Source: Escherichia coli | GTDB taxonomy: Bacteria > Pseudomonadota > Gammaproteobacteria > Enterobacterales > Enterobacteriaceae | NCBI RefSeq assembly: GCF_044324875.1 | Contig: NZ_CP172185.1 | Length of the DNA stretch: 64,000 bases | Strand: one strand, 5' to 3' | Shown here: one piece after another, positions 41,062 through 47,601 of the stretch | How the letters are laid out: each line of letters starts with the position of its first letter | How positions within the stretch are numbered: position 1 is the first letter of the stretch | Made by a program: the position numbers and the translations under genes | Notes under the pieces: model-generated | Told to the model about the DNA's origin: nothing | The model's database searches: none | The model's input: only the letters and a program-made list of their open reading frames with translations

Positions 41062-42747
41062 TTATAAAACCGCGCTAATGTCACAAATATCATCAGCCAG
41101 GTTCCAGACACCGGGTTGATGTGTAACCATAATGACGCCGCTTGTGGGTAGTTTTTCACGCACTAAACGCAGTAAGCGGATAGCCTCTTGTTCCTCAAGA
41201 TGAGAGGTAGTTTCGTCAAGAAATATCCATTTCGGACGTCGTAAAATTAATCGTGCCAGGGCGATACGTTGTTTTTCGCCGCTGGAAAGAATATCTCCCC
41301 AGCGATCGTGGTCATGAATACGCGCAGCCAATTTCCCCAGACCAACCTGATGCAGTATTTCGCTCAACGATTTATCGTCTACGGGCAGGGGAAGTGCTTT
41401 ACAAATAATCTCTTTCAGTAAGCCGGTTTTGATTAACGGTGTTTGTGACACATACCAACTGTCAGCAGGAGAAGAAATATCACCTTTGAACCACGGCCAG
41501 CAGTGGGATAATGTTTTAAGCAGTGTGGTTTTTCCCGCACCAGAGTAACCTTTCAGTAATAGCCATTTGCCTGGCGAAACATGAAAGTTCAGGTTCTCTA
41601 ATATGATCTTATTATCAGGAGTACGAATACTCGCGTCAGCCACTTGTACCGCATGTTGGCAATTTTTAGGCTTATTCGTAGGGCGCTGTTCGGTGAGTTG
41701 ATGGAACTCATACAAACGATCGATAACAGCAGCCAGTTCAGCAAGTTCGTCATATTTATAAATAAACCAGCTTAAATTGTTCGATACCAGCATAAATGCC
41801 TGGCGCGATTTCATCAGTCCGCCCAGATTGATCTGTCCGCTAATAAACTGTGGCAATAACAGAAAGTAGGGAAGAACGCTAAGCGAGCGCGAATAAATAT
41901 TCTGCCAGTAATCAAGCCAGCGCTGACGATTCATTAAACGATGCCAGTTCTCTTTAATGGTATGAAAATTGTCGCTCAACTCCTGGCGTTGTAAAGACTC
42001 AGCATTGCTTAGCGCAATCAGTTCTGCCTGCTTATTATGCTGCACAAGATTAGTTCGAAATGTCGCTTCGCTACGTTGTTTTTCCACATTAAGCGGACGA
42101 ATACGTTTACCAACCTTATGAGTAAATAAAGTTCCACCGATCACAATGAGCACAACGGTATAGACCATATACCCCTGGATATTCCATTCTGTTCCACCAA
42201 CAGTGAATGAGAGCGTACCCGCGCTTTGCCAAAGAATAACGGTAAAGGTGATCAACATGCTAAGTGACTGGATGAAGCCAAATGAAAGACTGAGCGTTTT
42301 GCTGATCAGTAAGAGAATGTCTTCAGCGATACGTTGGTCAGGGTTATCTGTATTTTTATGCTCACCGTAGATCTGCGTGAAGTAGTAGTTTTTATCTGCA
42401 AACCAGCGATTAAGGTAGTAATCTGTTAACCATTCGCGCCAGCGAATAGTCAGTAGTTTAATTAACCATGTTTTGTTTACGGATATTAATACAAAGATCC
42501 CCAGCAGGGCAGGGAACCAAAGAACAAGCTGCCAAAGCTTATCGGTTTCTTTCTGGCTTAGCGCATTGAAAAAATCATTATTCCAGTCGTTTAACCAGAC
42601 CTGAATTTTAACCACGCCAAGGATCATGGCGAGGATAATAATGATTAACAACACTGAAGTTTTATTATTCTTACGCAGCCAAAAGGGCTTCAGCAGACAG
42701 AGATACTTTGCTATCAACATACGAAACGTAATGGGAATGGTTATCAT
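41062..42747 (-). CDS. yddA: ABC transporter, fused permease and ATPase
   Basis: 561 aa; N-terminal TM domain and C-terminal NBD with Walker A GYSGAGKTT and signature LSSGEKQR. Confidence 0.9.
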   Translation of the reverse strand: MITIPITFRMLIAKYLCLLKPFWLRKNNKTSVLLIIIILAMILGVVKIQVWLNDWNNDFFNALSQKETDKLWQLVLWFPALLGIFVLISVNKTWLIKLLTIRWREWLTDYYLNRWFADKNYYFTQIYGEHKNTDNPDQRIAEDILLLISKTLSLSFGFIQSLSMLITFTVILWQSAGTLSFTVGGTEWNIQGYMVYTVVLIVIGGTLFTHKVGKRIRPLNVEKQRSEATFRTNLVQHNKQAELIALSNAESLQRQELSDNFHTIKENWHRLMNRQRWLDYWQNIYSRSLSVLPYFLLLPQFISGQINLGGLMKSRQAFMLVSNNLSWFIYKYDELAELAAVIDRLYEFHQLTEQRPTNKPKNCQHAVQVADASIRTPDNKIILENLNFHVSPGKWLLLKGYSGAGKTTLLKTLSHCWPWFKGDISSPADSWYVSQTPLIKTGLLKEIICKALPLPVDDKSLSEILHQVGLGKLAARIHDHDRWGDILSSGEKQRIALARLILRRPKWIFLDETTSHLEEQEAIRLLRLVREKLPTSGVIMVTHQPGVWNLADDICDISAVL

Positions 42748-43037
42748 TAGCGAAAATTGATTGTGCCATCCAATGATTATCTATGGCAATGATTTACTGA
42801 TGAAATTTATTTAAGTATCCTTTAACAATATGAAATATAAAGGAATATTTCATTTTCAGTGGTTATGGTTATGCTATTGATAATCAAGGATATTGCTAAT
42901 GCCCTGACGCATACCACGTAAGCCAGGATTTTCGCAAGGGAAGATGATGATGACGAAACACCCGACAGGAATATGTGTCGGGTGCATTGTTAAGGTCATA
43001 AGAAGGAGGCTAAGACTGGAGCTAAGAGGGAGCGTTA

Positions 43038-44210
43038 TTAATTATTCTCCATTTGTTTTGCAACATCCATGATGTGGTAAAGCGGTACTCTGTTCTTAGC
43101 TAACTCCACCATGGCGTTCATATAAGGTACCATGGTTGAAAAAAGGATTTTATAACCTTCGCAAAAATAAGAAACAGTCTCATTGTTTACTTTAGTAATA
43201 CGATGCTTAGGACAACCGCCATTGCAGATAGGTTTATATGCACATTGCTGACATTTCGCTGAAATCCGTTTTTTTTGCGCTGTCAGTTGTACACTGTTCA
43301 TTGTTTTGAGTTCAGATTTATTAATGTTTCCAATTTTGTACTGTGGATAGACAAAATGGTCGCATTCGTAAATGTCTCCATTACTTTCAACAACCAGATT
43401 ATCCTTGCAGGACTCCTGGAAAATACAACTGGTATGCCCATTCCCCAAAAAACGGCTGACAAAGCTTTCAAACTGACGGATGAAAATTTCACCCACATCG
43501 TTTTTAACCCATTGCATAAAAATGGTTGACATAAACTTGCCATAAGCCGTAGGAGGCACAGAAAAATCAATGATACGGAATGTGTTCTCACTATGACCAC
43601 TGAAATCAATATTCGGCGTCCCGGTTTCGAGCAATTCGATAAATTGCATATGTTTACTGCCGATAGATTTTAAAAAATGATAAACCTCAAGAGGGTAATG
43701 GACATTAATGTTATTAATGACGGTTAACGTATTAAACTCTACTTGATATGATTTCAGACGCTCGATGGCTGCTATCACTTTTGCAAAAGTACCGTTACCA
43801 GAATTACTGCGTCTGTAACGGTCATGTAGCTCCTGGGGTCCATCGATCGAGATACCAACCAGAAACTCATGTTCTTTGAGAAAGGCACACCATTCATTAT
43901 TCAATAAAATGCCATTCGTTTGTAATGCATTAAAAATACGTTTTTGGCCTGCATAGCGTTGTTGATAGTGAATAACTTTACGGAAAAAATCCAGACCAGC
44001 CAGAGTGGGTTCACCGCCTTGCCACGTAAAATAGACCTGATTGCCAGACGCTGCGATATATTGTTTGATGAACTCTTTCAGAGTGCTGTCATCCATCCAT
44101 TTTTCATGAGTAAACTGCGACTCTTTTTCAAGGTAAAAACAGTAATCACATTTGAGATTACATTGAAAACTGGAGGGCTTGGCTGTAACGTGCATCGCTA
44201 TCTCGCTCAA
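43038..44210 (-). CDS. ydeM: Radical-SAM anaerobic sulfatase-maturating enzyme homologue (AtsB-like)
   Basis: 390 aa ORF; [10 protein letters not shown] radical-SAM cluster motif plus C-terminal Cys-rich auxiliary cluster motifs; true start may be the ATG 5 codons downstream. Confidence 0.88.
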
Positions 44211-44246
44211 TAAGGCGGCGGAAAAATCCGCCGCATGAAGGTTTAG

Positions 44247-45929
44247 TTATTTCGCTTCGCTTAGTGCTTTCTTGATATTGTTAAACTTCTCCTGATTTAC
44301 CTCGCTAAGCGGTGGCTGGCTGCTGTCGATAAACTCTCTTACCACGCCTTGCATCTCTTTAACGACCTGTGGATTGGCGGCGGCAAGGTTATCTTTTTGC
44401 TGTAGATCCGTCAGTTTGTATAGACCTAACTGATTGTTTTCTACTGTATAGACAAGCGAATAATCGTTATTTCTCACCGTATAAGAGAATTGGCTTAAGT
44501 CCTCGGTATTGGGGTTATGCGGGTAATCGTCTGACTGATGGCGGACAAATTTGTGGTAATTATCCCAGAATGGAATATTTTCCTCGTCAAACCAGTGAGA
44601 ATAAGAGGTTATCCAGGTCAGATTTTTATGTGGCTCGCCTTGTTTCTTATCTTGCAACCACGGCAGCAAGGAAACGCCATCCAGCTTAAGGTCTTTTGGA
44701 ATGCTGATATCGGCTGCATCAAGAGCTGTCGGGTAGAAATCCATTGCGGAAATCAGCTTGTCATAATTACCTGGTTGAAGTTTTCCTTTCCACCACATAA
44801 ACATTGGGGTGTGAGTACCGCCAGGATAAGTCTGACTCTTATAGCCTTTTTGCGCCCCGTTCAGCGGCAGAGGACCATCGATAACCGCACCATTATCGGA
44901 GGTAAAGAGAATAATAGTATTGTCATACTGTCCGTTTTTCTTCAGTTGTTCGAGAATGCGTTTTACACCCTGATCAACAGAATAAACGGAAGCGTAGTAG
45001 TTATCTGCTGTTTGACTACCGGTATTAAATTGCTTCTGATATTGCTCCGGTGCAGGATTATCATTTGGCAGGTGCGGAGCATTATAAGCCAGGTAAAGCA
45101 TAAAAGGCTGGTCAAGTGTTTTGGCACGATCAACAACGCCAATTGCCTCATCGGTTAACTGATCGCTGATATAACCTTTTGCGGGGACGCGTTCACGATT
45201 TTTGAACAGTGAAGGGGAGTTGTAATATGCCGTTCCTGCAGCGTGGAATCCCATAAAGTAATCAAAGCCACGGTTTTGAGGTTGCCATTCTTCCGCAGAA
45301 AATGTGGTGAAGTTGTCATGATAGTCACGCGTTTGTTTATCTTCCGGTACTGGCACATTACTGATTTTTGACAAGTGCCATTTACCTACTGCTGCAGTGT
45401 AATAACCATGATTCTGGAATAATTCAGGCAAGAAAGTTTCTGTTAGCGGAATACCATCCTGAGCATCGGTATTGGAATAGACACCAAAGCGGGCGGGCGC
45501 TCGACCGGTCATTATTGCGGCGCGGGAGGGGCCGGAAACACCGTGCGCCACATAGCCGTTAGTAAAACGTACGCCTTCATCCATTAATGAAAGGAGCGTC
45601 GGCGTTGATTTTTGCGCAGCTTCAATGGCTTTATCTATCCCTATTTTGTAGGTATCGACAACTTCACGATTTTCCATTGTTTTTGGGTCAAAAGATTCCT
45701 TATCAAAAGGAAGTTGTCCATAACCAAGATCATCCATGGTCAGTACGATAATATTTGGCTTTCCTTTGGTACTGTATTCAGTCGGCGTAAAGTCTGAGAA
45801 AGCAACGTTTGTTTTGGTTGCTTTCAGCTTTACATCATCTGCCGCATGAGCAGCAAATGCAGCCATACCAGATGCCAGTATCAAAGATATCGAGGTACTT
45901 ACGACACTTTTCTTTAATGCAGACTTCAT
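44247..45929 (-). CDS. ydeN: Ser-type sulfatase, periplasmic
   Basis: ORF 44247-45962; start set at ATG 45929 (MKSALKKSVV...) with GAGGA ribosome-binding site; signal peptide; sulfatase signature S-G-P-S-R within VSGPSRAAIMTGR. Confidence 0.9.
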   Translation of the reverse strand: MKSALKKSVVSTSISLILASGMAAFAAHAADDVKLKATKTNVAFSDFTPTEYSTKGKPNIIVLTMDDLGYGQLPFDKESFDPKTMENREVVDTYKIGIDKAIEAAQKSTPTLLSLMDEGVRFTNGYVAHGVSGPSRAAIMTGRAPARFGVYSNTDAQDGIPLTETFLPELFQNHGYYTAAVGKWHLSKISNVPVPEDKQTRDYHDNFTTFSAEEWQPQNRGFDYFMGFHAAGTAYYNSPSLFKNRERVPAKGYISDQLTDEAIGVVDRAKTLDQPFMLYLAYNAPHLPNDNPAPEQYQKQFNTGSQTADNYYASVYSVDQGVKRILEQLKKNGQYDNTIILFTSDNGAVIDGPLPLNGAQKGYKSQTYPGGTHTPMFMWWKGKLQPGNYDKLISAMDFYPTALDAADISIPKDLKLDGVSLLPWLQDKKQGEPHKNLTWITSYSHWFDEENIPFWDNYHKFVRHQSDDYPHNPNTEDLSQFSYTVRNNDYSLVYTVENNQLGLYKLTDLQQKDNLAAANPQVVKEMQGVVREFIDSSQPPLSEVNQEKFNNIKKALSEAK

Positions 45930-46258
45930 AAATGTTCCTCTTCTTATTGTACTTAATTCCAAAGTAATTTTACGAAGAGAAATAAGTGAATGTAAGTGAA
46001 GTTAGTCACATAAAGAGATAGCAGATTTAGCTAAAAAAGGGAAATAACAGTCCATGAAGCGTTGACATTACTTTCTATTCTACTAAGTAATTTCTCGACG
46101 ATAAACAACTAATCTATTGATATTTAATAAATTATTGTATTTTACTGACAAAATGCCGAATTGAGATCATAAATAATCATGCAACAGGTTATGCAAATGC
46201 ATAAATATGTGATGAATGTCACTTATTTATTTCAATAAATATATCGCCTAAAAACAAC

Positions 46259-46290
46259 GCGGGGCAGGGAATGGCTGCCCCATTTTAATT
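46259..46290. terminator. Bidirectional Rho-independent terminator between ydeN upstream region and ydeO
   Basis: Hairpin GGGGCAGGGAATGGCTGCCCC flanked by T-rich runs on both strands, just 3' of the ydeO stop. Confidence 0.65.
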
Positions 46291-46330
46291 TTTACGTAGG
46301 GTGCGTGGTTGACTACTCGTTAGCAAATAA

Positions 46331-47092
46331 TCAAATAGCTAAAGCATTCATCGTGTTGCCCTTATTCATACCCGTGTGCCTTTGACAACGGTACTCCTTA
46401 GAAACTCTCTTTGGACTGTTGCCAAAATGTTTGCGGAACGCATAAATAAAATAAGATGTACTCGCATAACCACATTGTTCGGCAATTTTATTGACTGAAC
46501 CTTCTACGCGTATCAAATTTTTTGCGTGCTGCATTCTGGCATCTAAAAGAATCTGTGAGAATGTCGTTTGCTCTTGCTTTAGTTTTTTCTTCAACAGGCT
46601 TTCACTGATGTACAGGCAGTCACAAATATCTTTCAGCTTCCATGGGTGCGCCAGCTTCATGTTGACAATATTTCTCACTTTCCCGGAAACGGATAGCACA
46701 CCGTTAGTTAATAGTGTAATGAAACCTTTGCATGTGGCAAAAATAGACAGGCAAGAAAAAAGCAAAAGTTCTGAAAAATTATGATGATTGCGTTCTTCCG
46801 AGTTGAGATAAGCAATCATTTCATTAAGCAATCCAGTCGGTACATTTGAAGCACGTAAAAACTTCGCAGGAACAGGCACCGTCACTGTCTGGATGTTAGT
46901 GCATTGTAGATATTTTTTAATGGTATTTTCATTAAATCCGATTTCTTTGAAATGCCGCTCATAAGGTTCAAAATGCGTACGAACAGCGTTATCTACCATC
47001 AGGATCTCGCCGTCAGAGAAGGCGTAATCTTTATCTAAAATGTTAGCGTTGAAGGCATGATGAATAAATATAACAGAACAAACGAGCGACAT
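46331..47092 (-). CDS. ydeO: AraC-family transcriptional regulator of acid resistance
   Basis: 253 aa; C-terminal AraC HTH (GYASTSYFIYAFRKHFGNSPK); downstream of safA. Confidence 0.9.
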   Translation of the reverse strand: MSLVCSVIFIHHAFNANILDKDYAFSDGEILMVDNAVRTHFEPYERHFKEIGFNENTIKKYLQCTNIQTVTVPVPAKFLRASNVPTGLLNEMIAYLNSEERNHHNFSELLLFSCLSIFATCKGFITLLTNGVLSVSGKVRNIVNMKLAHPWKLKDICDCLYISESLLKKKLKQEQTTFSQILLDARMQHAKNLIRVEGSVNKIAEQCGYASTSYFIYAFRKHFGNSPKRVSKEYRCQRHTGMNKGNTMNALAI

Positions 47093-47166
47093 TTTATCTC
47101 CTTAAAACAATAAAGTTTTTATCGATACTTTTTTAACATTTCATATTTATAATTTGCTGTTTATTT

Positions 47167-47364
47167 TCAGTCTTGCAAACTATTGATAATGAAATGTGTA
47201 AGATCCCTTGCAATGCGCCCCATTTCTGAAATACCCAGCTGATCAATTGCCGAAAAAATGGCTATCAATGTAAGGGTCAGTAATAAGACAACCACAATTA
47301 CAGACATGATCCCTTTATAGTTGTCTCTTTGCGTGATTTTATTTTTCACTATGGTCGCATGCAT
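47167..47364 (-). CDS. safA: Two-component-system connector membrane protein SafA
   Basis: 65 aa, single TM segment; matches SafA (MHATIVKNKITQRDNYKGIMSVIVVVLLLTL). Confidence 0.85.
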   Translation of the reverse strand: MHATIVKNKITQRDNYKGIMSVIVVVLLLTLTLIAIFSAIDQLGISEMGRIARDLTHFIINSLQD

Positions 47365-47601
47365 TTCAAATGTGTTTATTAAACGAATGACGTTAATCAG
47401 TATGCTTAATATAACAGGCTGGAGAATAGAGGAAATAGGACTGGCGCTTCAGTACTGAGCGGAGTTTCTTACAGCTGTAGGCGGAGGTATATATCTTATA
47501 ACGAGCAGTTTAATTTAGCACATGTGAGTAAATTGCGCGACAATGGTCAATGAGGAATTCTTCTGCTGTGCGGATGACAGCAGAAGAAATGAGGAGGCGA
47601 A

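Follow-up and report, generated by a model that had tools for sequence, protein, structure and literature searches.

Two adjacent genes of Escherichia coli, ydeN and ydeM, very probably form an operon for a formylglycine sulfatase of the Ser-type and its dedicated maturase. They occupy the minus strand of the 64,000-nucleotide stretch analysed here (the window) from 45929, the first base of the ydeN start codon (ATG, preceded by AAGAGGA), down to 43038, on which the stop codon of ydeM ends. The ORF coordinates agree with the RefSeq models (560 and 385 aa) and both reading frames are intact. As a finding the pairing is ordinary, since both genes have names, carry annotation in thousands of genomes and already appear in the literature as a putative sulfatase of the Ser-type with its maturase. 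The analysis adds a Ser-type group that is sister to an all-Cys clade, nearest folds in subfamily S1_19 and an intercistronic hairpin in five taxa. The features of the locus are as follows.

45930..46259, (-) strand: ydeN upstream promoter/regulatory region, between the ydeO terminator and the ydeN start codon
44247..45929, (-) strand: ydeN CDS, 560 aa, RefSeq ydeN; by sequence a Ser-type S1 formylglycine-dependent sulfatase, predicted periplasmic
45840..45929, (-) strand: predicted Sec-type signal peptide of YdeN, MKSALKK...AAFAAHA/A, about 29-30 residues, from sequence features
45501..45536, (-) strand: putative formylglycine motif S132-G-P-S-R-A-A-I-M-T-G-R, with the Ser132 codon TCC at 45534-45536
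44215..44234, (-) strand: intercistronic GC-rich hairpin, GCGGCGGA-UUUU-UCCGCCGC, inside the 51-nt gap between ydeN and ydeM
43038..44195, (-) strand: ydeM CDS, 385 aa, RefSeq ydeM; by sequence a radical-SAM/SPASM anaerobic sulfatase-maturating enzyme
44139..44162, (-) strand: radical-SAM motif C12-N-L-K-C16-D-Y-C19 of YdeM (CxxxCxxC), invariant in 5/5 orthologues
43161..43427, (-) strand: SPASM region of YdeM with C257, C263, C278, C315, C318, C324, C328, C345 and Asp279
42952..42984, (-) strand: terminator-like hairpin, CACCCGACA...UGUCGGGUG followed by UUUCGUC, starting 54 nt past the ydeM stop codon

Judged by its sequence, YdeN is an S1 sulfatase of the Ser-type subclass, with formylglycine formation and sulfate-ester hydrolysis as its putative chemistry. 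It matches the full-length Sulfatase profile of Pfam (PF00884, positions 1-301) with E = 2.1e-70 and 237.9 bits against a cut-off of 25. The AlphaFold model (pLDDT 92.2, pTM 0.90; residues 1-44 disordered) has the alpha/beta/alpha core and the C-terminal sub-domain of the S1 fold, and S1 sulfatases made up 50/50 of the Foldseek matches listed, with target-normalised TM-scores of up to 0.82. HMMER alignments to solved sulfatases place Ser132 on the Cys of 'CGPSR' in 9HH3 and match it to a Ser at the formylglycine position in the deposited 9HH2 sequence; 6PSM, a relative of these two, is titled as a C77S variant. The Ser that the original prediction had read at the formylglycine position is thereby confirmed there.

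The motif, with its S-x-P-x-R-x3-M-T-G-R recognition pattern, is invariant among orthologues. The formylglycine column holds Cys or Ser in all 86 sequences of the YdeN family alignment, and within the YdeN group it is Ser in 17/17 orthologues, encoded by TCC, TCA or TCT. D66, D67, R136, H185, D345 and K364 are invariant across the 86 sequences, and K183, H286 and N346 are kept in 85, giving a complete set of metal-binding (Asp/Asp/Asp/Asn) and sulfate-binding (Arg/Lys/His/His/Lys) residues. The N-terminus (MKSALKKSVVSTSISLILASGMAAFAAHA, followed by Ala) contains three Lys, an uncharged hydrophobic core of about 20 residues (Kyte-Doolittle ~2) and an A-H-A site in an A-x-A region conserved among orthologues; a twin-arginine motif was not found in it. 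Because it combines a Lys-rich n-region, a hydrophobic core and an A-x-A site and lacks RR, the leader looks like a Sec-type signal peptide, and the signal peptide claimed for YdeN stands on these features.

The sequence of YdeM identifies it as an anaerobic sulfatase-maturating enzyme, putatively converting Ser to formylglycine. Pfam recognises Radical_SAM (E = 2.7e-22) and SPASM (E = 3.5e-06) domains, and the only NCBIfam equivalog cut-off that YdeM passes is that of the anaerobic sulfatase maturase model TIGR03942 (504.6 bits against 349.45, E = 1.5e-151, model positions 1-362 of 363). Together with the Pfam score of YdeN, this agrees with the proposed sulfatase-maturase pair, and scores of this size leave no room for chance resemblance. 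The eight auxiliary-cluster Cys and Asp279 are invariant in 5/5 orthologues, the start Met-His is invariant among orthologues, and YdeM and four orthologues keep the full set of 11 Cys of the Clostridium perfringens enzyme anSMEcpe along with its catalytic Asp.

The enzyme families suggest how the pair could work. YdeM would act in the cytoplasm as a radical-SAM/SPASM enzyme that carries three [4Fe-4S] clusters and binds the motif S132-G-P-S-R-(x3)-M-T-G-R of unfolded YdeN; a YdeN-derived peptide that is a candidate substrate is …AHGVSGPSRAAIMTGR…. YdeM would reductively cleave SAM and take the C-beta hydrogen from Ser132, and with Asp279 as base Ser132 would become C-alpha-formylglycine without O2. 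YdeN would then be exported via Sec and its leader cut off. In the periplasm, the hydrated formylglycine, Ca2+ (held by D66, D67, D345 and N346) and R136, K183, H185, H286 and K364 may together hydrolyse the sulfate ester. We infer the oxygen independence of this maturation from the chemistry of the enzyme family. A maturase also depends on SAM, on a reductant and on Fe-S assembly, as the sulfatase does on Sec export, so the 'self-contained' module of the original prediction is self-contained in a relative sense.

Both ends of the unit and the gap between its genes carry candidate control elements. The 8-bp stem of the intercistronic hairpin dominates the centroid structure (centroid -17 kcal/mol), and the E. 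coli hairpin folds only modestly better than shuffled sequence (z = -1.75). An equivalent stable hairpin of unrelated sequence occupies the sulfatase-maturase gap in 5/5 taxa examined. The terminator scan did not flag the E. coli hairpin because its U-tract is weak. Its role is probably that of a leaky terminator or of an element for RNA stability, and it probably keeps expression of the maturase below that of the sulfatase. The hairpin 3' of ydeM (folding energy -17.5 kcal/mol) likely marks the end of the operon; the terminator consensus scan did not flag it, since its 8-base tail has just 4 T. Upstream of ydeN, the promoter scan found two weak sigma-70-like matches (46159-46131 and 45996-45967).

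Earlier literature describes ydeM as co-transcribed with ydeN and already calls YdeM a putative YdeN-specific maturase. AraC is reported to need arabinose for binding upstream of ydeN, and ydeMN expression to be higher in an araC deletion strain; the AraC site was not placed here, as matches from a consensus scan of the region were no commoner than chance. The ydeM gene is also among those up-regulated in a mouse-gut-adapted mutant without araC. YdeN protein has been listed in the outer-membrane-vesicle proteome of a tolA mutant and detected in an anaerobic rumen-fluid proteome. Literature searches found no report of formylglycine in YdeN, of YdeN activity or of maturation by YdeM.

The pair is conserved well beyond this window. 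At least 80% of the ydeNM stretch is present in 5322 of 5426 complete E. coli genomes. A sulfatase gene followed directly by a maturase gene also occurs in Yersinia pestis, Aeromonas veronii, Anaerobiospirillum and Proteus (4/4 taxa), where the flanks are otherwise unrelated, and on Proteus/Providencia plasmids. Outside E. coli, ydeNM adjoins IS elements or integrases in some taxa. Across genera synonymous sites are saturated (pS 0.76-0.90) and pN is just 0.125-0.34; within E. coli, dN/dS of ydeM is 0.03. Purifying selection on both genes is strong. That the two stay adjacent as a unit on plasmids, and in four distant taxa whose flanks are unrelated, strengthens the idea of a module; against its stricter form, a plasmid-borne E. 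coli paralogue of ydeN has no maturase on its plasmid, and strict pairing is therefore not obligatory.

The relatives of YdeN provide a lead to its substrate, which literature up to 2024 states as unreported, as the original prediction also held. The YdeN sequences form a monophyletic group (60/60 bootstraps) that is sister to the PB_3285 clade (51/60 bootstraps), with which they share 38-41% identity and in which the formylglycine position is Cys in 21/21 sequences. A placement of YdeN inside that clade was rejected, as its group falls outside. PB_3285 (protein P0406) of Photobacterium sp. QA16 is a characterised chondroitin-sulfate GalNAc-6-O-exosulfatase (PMC8819143). It is the closest biochemically characterised relative of YdeN found (40% identity over 504 aa, 4 gaps), has a signal peptide, as is predicted for YdeN, and shares with YdeN a segment of about 33 residues linking the DDLG motif to the formylglycine helix, but it is Cys-type (C109) where YdeN is Ser-type. 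The one member of this clade whose surroundings were examined, that of Plesiomonas, lies in a GalNAc/chondroitin utilisation locus, and a more distant Cys-type relative in Ancylomarina adjoins chondroitin-type lyases. In Salmonella enterica a YdeN orthologue (82% identity) coexists with a PB_3285-clade member, suggesting that their specificities may differ.

The best PDB matches of YdeN are the S1_19 carrageenan (D-galactose-4-) sulfatases ZgCgsA (9HH2/9HH3), PsS1_19A (6B0J) and PsS1_19B (6PSM), with 181 bits, a Foldseek E of 3e-35, target-normalised TM-scores of 0.80-0.82 and the same active-site residues. Identity in the structural alignment is just 26-29%, and for this reason YdeN was not filed under SulfAtlas S1_19 despite these matches. 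The S1_19 structures also lack an insertion of about 25 residues and part of the C-terminal region of YdeN (query-normalised TM-score ~0.66), and the enzymes themselves, marine and Cys-type, have algal polysaccharide as their substrate. Among solved folds, the nearest are those of S1_19 and S1_16, which desulfate position 4 of galacto sugars. With a GalNAc-6-O-exosulfatase in the sister clade and galactose-4-sulfatases as nearest folds, a galacto-sugar sulfate is a plausible substrate. We tentatively propose a small one, for example GalNAc or Gal sulfated at position 6 or 4 and derived from the breakdown of host glycosaminoglycan or mucin, as a possibility somewhat short of an even chance. Sugar- or glycosaminoglycan-utilisation genes do not neighbour E. 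coli ydeNM, and the lead therefore rests on relatives just 40% identical; GalNAc/chondroitin utilisation genes are likewise absent from the ydeNM loci of Yersinia, Aeromonas, Anaerobiospirillum and Proteus. The two leads also disagree, since the characterised relative points to 6-O-sulfate and the solved folds to 4-O-sulfate.

Some of the evidence would also suit a broader enzyme. If the pair is real and YdeN scavenges sulfur as a general arylsulfatase, in the manner of Klebsiella AtsA, and is not a carbohydrate sulfatase, its best NCBIfam sulfatase matches ('arylsulfatase' and 'choline-sulfatase' models), the lack of flanking sugar-utilisation genes in E. coli and the report that the sulfonated azo dye FD&C Red 40 induced ydeN and no other gene would all fit. 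Those matches, however, fall far under their cut-offs (123.9 bits vs 481), a carbohydrate sulfatase has been characterised in the sister clade, every one of the closest solved structures is a carbohydrate sulfatase, and control by AraC and arabinose suggests a link to sugar metabolism instead of sulfur starvation. We regard a scavenging arylsulfatase as unlikely. In another reading Ser132 itself serves as nucleophile, as happens elsewhere in the alkaline-phosphatase superfamily, and YdeM is a RiPP-type peptide maturase unrelated to YdeN. Against it, the ORF list has no precursor-peptide gene between or beside ydeN and ydeM. YdeN does match Phosphodiest (PF01663, E = 1.3e-07) and YdeM has sub-threshold NCBIfam matches to the peptide maturases DynA, DarE and DarW, but the Sulfatase score is far above the Phosphodiest score, the full recognition motif is invariant, and YdeM reaches just 218 bits against a cut-off of 450 for DynA while passing the anaerobic sulfatase maturase cut-off and no other. 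Direct catalysis by Ser132 seems to us hardly credible.

Whether YdeM acts on YdeN in vivo touches on the other maturases of E. coli. The literature names AslB and YdeM together as putative maturases, suspects a third maturation system besides them and reports that a foreign Ser-type sulfatase gained activity in E. coli with no maturase co-expressed. AslB, at about 40% identity to YdeM, could stand in for it, and together with the plasmid paralogue of ydeN that lacks a maturase these points would suit a YdeN matured by AslB or another system, with YdeM redundant or directed at some other target. Such an arrangement would leave unaccounted for the adjacency of sulfatase and maturase in 4/4 distant taxa despite complete change of flanks, and the selection on all cluster and catalytic residues of YdeM. 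The suspected third system reportedly concerns Cys-type sulfatases, for which Benjdia et al. are said to have described it in 2007. We infer YdeM to be the maturase in vivo and consider another maturase improbable. A still smaller chance attaches to ydeNM as a horizontally acquired, silenced remnant with no present function in E. coli. G+C is low (ydeM 38.6%, ydeN 44.1%, window 47.5%), mobile elements adjoin the locus in other taxa, and the literature offers no phenotype, deletion of ydeN leaving azo-dye depletion unaffected; yet the intact frames, the near-universal retention in E. coli, the low dN/dS of ydeM, dN far under dS across genera, the detection of YdeN by proteomics and the regulated transcription all speak for a gene pair in use.

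A wider proposal concerns the history and role of the pair, and we put it forward as conjecture slightly more doubtful than the substrate class itself. The YdeN group may be a Ser-type branch off a Cys-type GalNAc-6-O-exosulfatase lineage, now a mobile cassette of sulfatase and own maturase, that would let gut facultative anaerobes strip sulfate periplasmically from small galacto sugar sulfates released by other microbes from host glycosaminoglycans or mucin, with the conserved hairpin setting a high sulfatase:maturase ratio. The organisms concerned are Escherichia, Salmonella, Yersinia, Proteus, Aeromonas and Anaerobiospirillum. If the cassette exists in this form, E. coli would have a defined part in the cross-feeding that sulfated host glycans support, and there would be a concrete panel of substrates for it. 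YdeN lacks a reported substrate although no bacterium is better studied than E. coli. With the sister-clade enzyme and the nearest solved folds identified, the search narrows from the aryl or carbohydrate sulfates named in the original prediction to GalNAc/Gal 6- and 4-sulfates and unsaturated chondroitin disaccharides. Should the substrate guess be right, it would tie E. coli to sulfated host glycans as a resource in the anoxic gut and help to explain the up-regulation of ydeM in the gut-adapted mutant.

Three known systems resemble ydeNM in different respects. AslA/AslB is the other putative sulfatase and maturase pair of the same species; AslA is Cys-type, AslB-type maturases share about 40% identity with YdeM, and YdeM stays under the AslB-type NCBIfam model (362 bits vs 484). 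The maturase anSMEcpe (PDB 4K36-4K39) matches YdeM over residues 4-359 (4K36, E = 5e-63). Its radical-SAM ligands C15/C19/C22 correspond to YdeM C12/C16/C19, the CxxxCxxC motif recognised in the original prediction, and the additional Cys clusters suspected there resolve one-to-one onto the Aux I ligands C255/261/276/330 (YdeM C257/263/278/328) and the Aux II ligands C317/320/326/348 (YdeM C315/318/324/345); D277 corresponds to D279. The natural substrate of anSMEcpe is a Cys-type sulfatase and its gene is not known to belong to a two-gene cassette, and YdeM falls under the NCBIfam model of its orthologue group (256.6 bits vs 441). AtsA/AtsB of Klebsiella pneumoniae, the paradigm to which the original prediction referred, couples a periplasmic Ser-type S1 sulfatase with an adjacent three-cluster radical-SAM enzyme that makes the formylglycine before export. 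YdeM passes the NCBIfam equivalog model of AtsB's enzyme class, although one Klebsiella maturase is just 41.8% identical to it and in that locus the maturase gene comes first, whereas ydeNM begins with the sulfatase gene.

The interval 43038-45929 holds two ORFs, both on the minus strand, and the original prediction placed it exactly, matching both ORFs and their gene models. The locus has the following features:

44247-45962, minus strand: ydeN ORF (annotated ATG at 45929, 560 aa)
45501-45536, minus strand: motif S132-G-P-S-R-A-A-I-M-T-G-R, Ser132 codon TCC
44215-44234, minus strand: 8-bp all-G/C hairpin in the 51-nt ydeN-ydeM gap, from folding
43038-44210, minus strand: ydeM ORF (annotated ATG at 44195, 385 aa)
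42952-42984, minus strand: terminator-like hairpin after ydeM, from folding
46260-46282: terminator after ydeO, from the consensus terminator scan

The ydeN start is supported by a Shine-Dalgarno sequence (AAGAGGA) and the ydeM start by the invariant Met-His start of its orthologues. With positions 42800-46300 as the megablast query, 5322 of the 5426 complete E. coli RefSeq genomes contained 80% or more of the locus; ydeN is labeled there a sulfatase-like hydrolase/transferase and ydeM an anaerobic sulfatase maturase. E. coli 042, at 99.1% identity, has gene models of exactly 1683 and 1158 bp; yddA, yddB and pqqL lie downstream of the pair, while ydeO, safA and ydeP lie upstream. Of 5387 matching records, only 186 are at least 99% identical over the locus. 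The ydeN gene is nucleotide-identical between the window and E. coli 042, and the adjoining ydeM differs (dS 0.036, one amino-acid change), which suggests from sequence comparison that a recombination boundary falls inside or close to the operon. G+C content is low (0.35-0.45) at 42000-47500, covering the 5′ part of yddA, ydeM, ydeN, ydeO and safA, and reaches 0.50-0.53 in ydeP; the low-G+C stretch is consistent with horizontally acquired DNA. RefSeq also places a 40-aa hypothetical protein opposite ydeM (around 42950-43072; 6151-6273 on the plus strand of the E. coli 042 locus, L001). This ORF, which overlaps the ydeM 3′ end and the terminator-like hairpin, probably reflects an annotation artefact.

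YdeN spans the whole Pfam Sulfatase profile (E = 2.1e-70). HMMER alignments to solved structures place Ser132 on the Cys of the CGPSR motif in the carrageenan sulfatase 9HH3. Paired deposited sulfatase sequences that differ in Cys/Ser at the catalytic site served as references: the 9HH2 sequence carries Ser at that same position and the related structure 6PSM is titled explicitly as a C77S variant. Ser132 therefore occupies the formylglycine position, as predicted. In an 86-sequence family alignment this column holds only Cys or Ser, and the metal- and sulfate-binding residues D66, D67, R136, K183, H185, H286, D345, N346 and K364 are invariant or nearly so. An AlphaFold model built on this alignment (pLDDT 92.2, pTM 0.90) is disordered only at the N-terminus; it replaced a discarded model based on 17 orthologues (pLDDT 46.5). 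The N-terminus has Sec-type features, in line with the predicted signal peptide.

YdeM matches the Radical_SAM and SPASM models and scores 504.6 bits against the NCBIfam equivalog "anaerobic sulfatase maturase" (cut-off 349.45), while it falls below the cut-offs of the peptide-maturase models DynA, DarE and DarW. We computed the residue correspondence to the structure-defined Clostridium perfringens maturase anSMEcpe (4K36, E = 5e-63), and every cysteine could be mapped. C12/16/19, the CxxxCxxC motif, correspond to C15/19/22, the radical-SAM cluster ligands. C257/263/278/328 correspond to C255/261/276/330 (Aux I), C315/318/324/345 to C317/320/326/348 (Aux II), and D279 to D277. From the published structure, we take these cysteines to be the ligands of the respective anSMEcpe clusters and D277 to be the catalytic base. 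The additional cysteine clusters ascribed to YdeM are thus these eight residues. A misplaced serine or missing auxiliary motifs would have counted against the pair; given the Ser132 alignment and the cysteine mapping, neither is the case, and the observation stands.

By the established mechanism of the enzyme family, cytoplasmic YdeM would act on unfolded YdeN. A SAM-derived 5′-deoxyadenosyl radical would take the C-beta hydrogen from Ser132, giving formylglycine without O2. YdeN would then cross the membrane via Sec and hydrolyze sulfate esters in the periplasm.

Orthologues of YdeN, 70-84% identical to it, are found in Leminorella, Salmonella, Citrobacter, Yersinia, Proteus, Shewanella, Aeromonas, Iodobacter and Anaerobiospirillum, and SGPSR is kept in all 17 aligned orthologues. 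A radical-SAM gene (386-391 aa) comes 42-222 bp after the sulfatase in four of four loci, from Y. pestis, A. veronii, Anaerobiospirillum and a Proteus-type locus. The flanks differ: an ABC transporter and IS200 in Y. pestis, IS elements and a porin in A. veronii, an SNF transporter and NUDIX gene in Anaerobiospirillum, and an integrase with phage genes in the Proteus-type locus. These four maturases share 53-66% identity with YdeM and retain all 11 cysteines and the aspartate. The pair is also found on Proteus and Providencia plasmids. Between genera, synonymous sites are saturated (pS 0.76-0.90), pN is 0.125-0.21 for ydeN and 0.22-0.34 for ydeM, and the codon of the formylglycine-position serine is TCC, TCA or TCT. 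Saturated pS, low pN and varying codons indicate that both genes, and the serine itself, are under purifying selection. Together with adjacency in four distant taxa and the plasmid occurrence, this supports the original reading of the pair as a module. In Y. pestis (L002), an AfuABC-like ABC transporter comprising a periplasmic binding protein, a fused permease and an ATPase (1505-5520) lies before the cassette, and an IS200-type transposase gene (9703-10161) lies after it. Many database proteins (P0002, P0003, P0004, P0008, P0013 and others) are YdeN fused to YdeO, YdeP, fimbrial or PqqL parts; each comes from single Logan assemblies and is probably a gene-calling or assembly artefact.

The E. 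coli IncF plasmid p14EC033d (NZ_CP024151.1; L006, 4769-8980) encodes a Ser-type ydeN paralogue (77.5% identical, SGPSR…LTAR) with a porin gene directly before it and an 85-aa hypothetical ORF and IS1 after it. At least 13 other plasmid records from E. coli also carry the paralogue gene. No YdeM-like gene was detectable in the 13.7-kb plasmid locus, and none of those plasmids appeared in the maturase search; the product is an orphan sulfatase, presumably dependent on a chromosomal maturase. Porin_1-family genes lie upstream of the sulfatase in A. veronii (L003, 3156-4235) and on this plasmid (4769-5905), and the two porins are 32% identical to each other. The Plesiomonas sulfatase locus holds a KdgM-family porin. 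Such porins hint that the substrate has an outer-membrane uptake route of its own.

The terminator after ydeO gives ydeN its own upstream region. The consensus scan flagged neither the intercistronic hairpin nor the one after ydeM. A stable GC-rich hairpin is present in the sulfatase-maturase gap in all five taxa, with unrelated sequences; in the other four, the gaps in which folding shows it are:

L002 (Y. pestis), 7672-7728: gap with hairpin
L003 (A. veronii), 7681-7738: gap with hairpin
L004 (Anaerobiospirillum), 7663-7884: gap with hairpin, the hairpin followed by a U-tract as in a true terminator
L005 (Proteus-type locus), 7675-7716: gap with hairpin

We infer that this element is a leaky terminator or an RNA-stabilizing structure that keeps the maturase sub-stoichiometric. 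An AraC half-site scan (TAGC-N7-TCCATA) returned 40 matches where chance predicts 51, and the ydeN promoter had none; the scan thus did not locate the AraC site described in the literature, for which the primary paper is Stringer et al. 2014. According to the literature, AraC occupies the region upstream of ydeN only with arabinose present, ydeM shares a transcript with ydeN, and an araC deletion strain expresses ydeMN at a high level. Proteomics has detected YdeN in outer-membrane vesicles of a tolA mutant and in rumen-fluid cultures grown anaerobically, and a sulfonated azo dye induced ydeN alone among genes, although ydeN was dispensable for dye reduction.

In a whole-library HMMER search the YdeN orthologue group stands apart: its next relatives share no more than 45% identity with it, and most of them are Cys-type. 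Plesiomonas, Photobacterium, Vibrio, Salmonella, Edwardsiella, Providencia and Pasteurellaceae are represented in the closest group. One member, P0406 (535 aa with C109, P111 and R113), is named [quoted passage not shown] in nr and matches PB_3285 of Photobacterium sp. QA16, a characterized exo-6-O-sulfatase acting on reducing-end GalNAc6S (PMC8819143). YdeN and this enzyme share 40% identity across 504 aa, and their alignment contains only four gaps. In a neighbor-joining tree, the YdeN group is monophyletic (60/60 bootstraps) and sister to the all-Cys PB_3285 clade (51/60). The Plesiomonas shigelloides member (L007, CP050969.1) has as neighbors a KdgM porin, a radical-SAM maturase and GalNAc catabolic genes of the aga type. 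A second sulfatase also lies there and matches very strongly the solved chondroitin/dermatan 4-O-endosulfatase 6J66 (956 bits, E = 4.6e-287). An Ancylomarina relative adjoins two PL8 lyases and a GH88 hydrolase. The Plesiomonas region (L007, 1-13350) further encodes sorbose-family PTS components, AgaS- and KbaZ-like genes, a DeoR regulator, a PF10022 protein, an aldolase and a PfkB kinase; its 412-aa maturase accompanies Cys-type sulfatases, including the YdeN-like one. It is apparently a chondroitin-disaccharide/GalNAc utilization locus.

The solved structures closest to YdeN are S1_19 carrageenan sulfatases followed by S1_16, and enzymes of both subfamilies desulfate galacto sugars at the 4-position. 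The sister clade, the loci of relatives and the structural neighbors together point, tentatively, to a galacto-configured sugar sulfate as the YdeN substrate. The leads disagree between 6-O (PB_3285) and 4-O (S1_19/S1_16), there are no glycan-utilization genes beside E. coli ydeNM, and Salmonella carries members of both the YdeN group and the PB_3285 clade; for these reasons we hold the assignment to be doubtful and file YdeN in neither family. We weighed placing it in S1_19 or among the GalNAc-6-O-sulfatases and decided against both. A GlcNAc-6-sulfatase, proposed in the literature from 33% similarity to BT4656, is disfavored because BT4656 (5G2V) ranks far below the S1_19 and S1_16 structures and PB_3285.

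The ydeNM observation is confirmed and its interpretation supported, and all of it is already in annotation and literature; the finding is ordinary. Deletion mutants of aslB, which encodes the second maturase homologue of E. coli, and of ydeM are said to have been made by Benjdia et al. in 2007. Both genes are described as putative maturases in the literature, which also terms YdeM the "YdeN-specific sulfatase-maturating enzyme". We modestly add that the YdeN group is sister to the clade of a characterized chondroitin GalNAc-6-O-exosulfatase, with Cys and Ser cleanly separated between the two, that ydeNM behaves as a mobile cassette and that the intercistronic hairpin is conserved. Among known systems, Klebsiella AtsA/AtsB is the functional analogue of YdeN/YdeM. 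The maturase of a Klebsiella locus (L009), where the N-terminal part of the sulfatase ORF lies in another frame, is 41.8% identical to YdeM, and anSMEcpe is the structural reference for YdeM.
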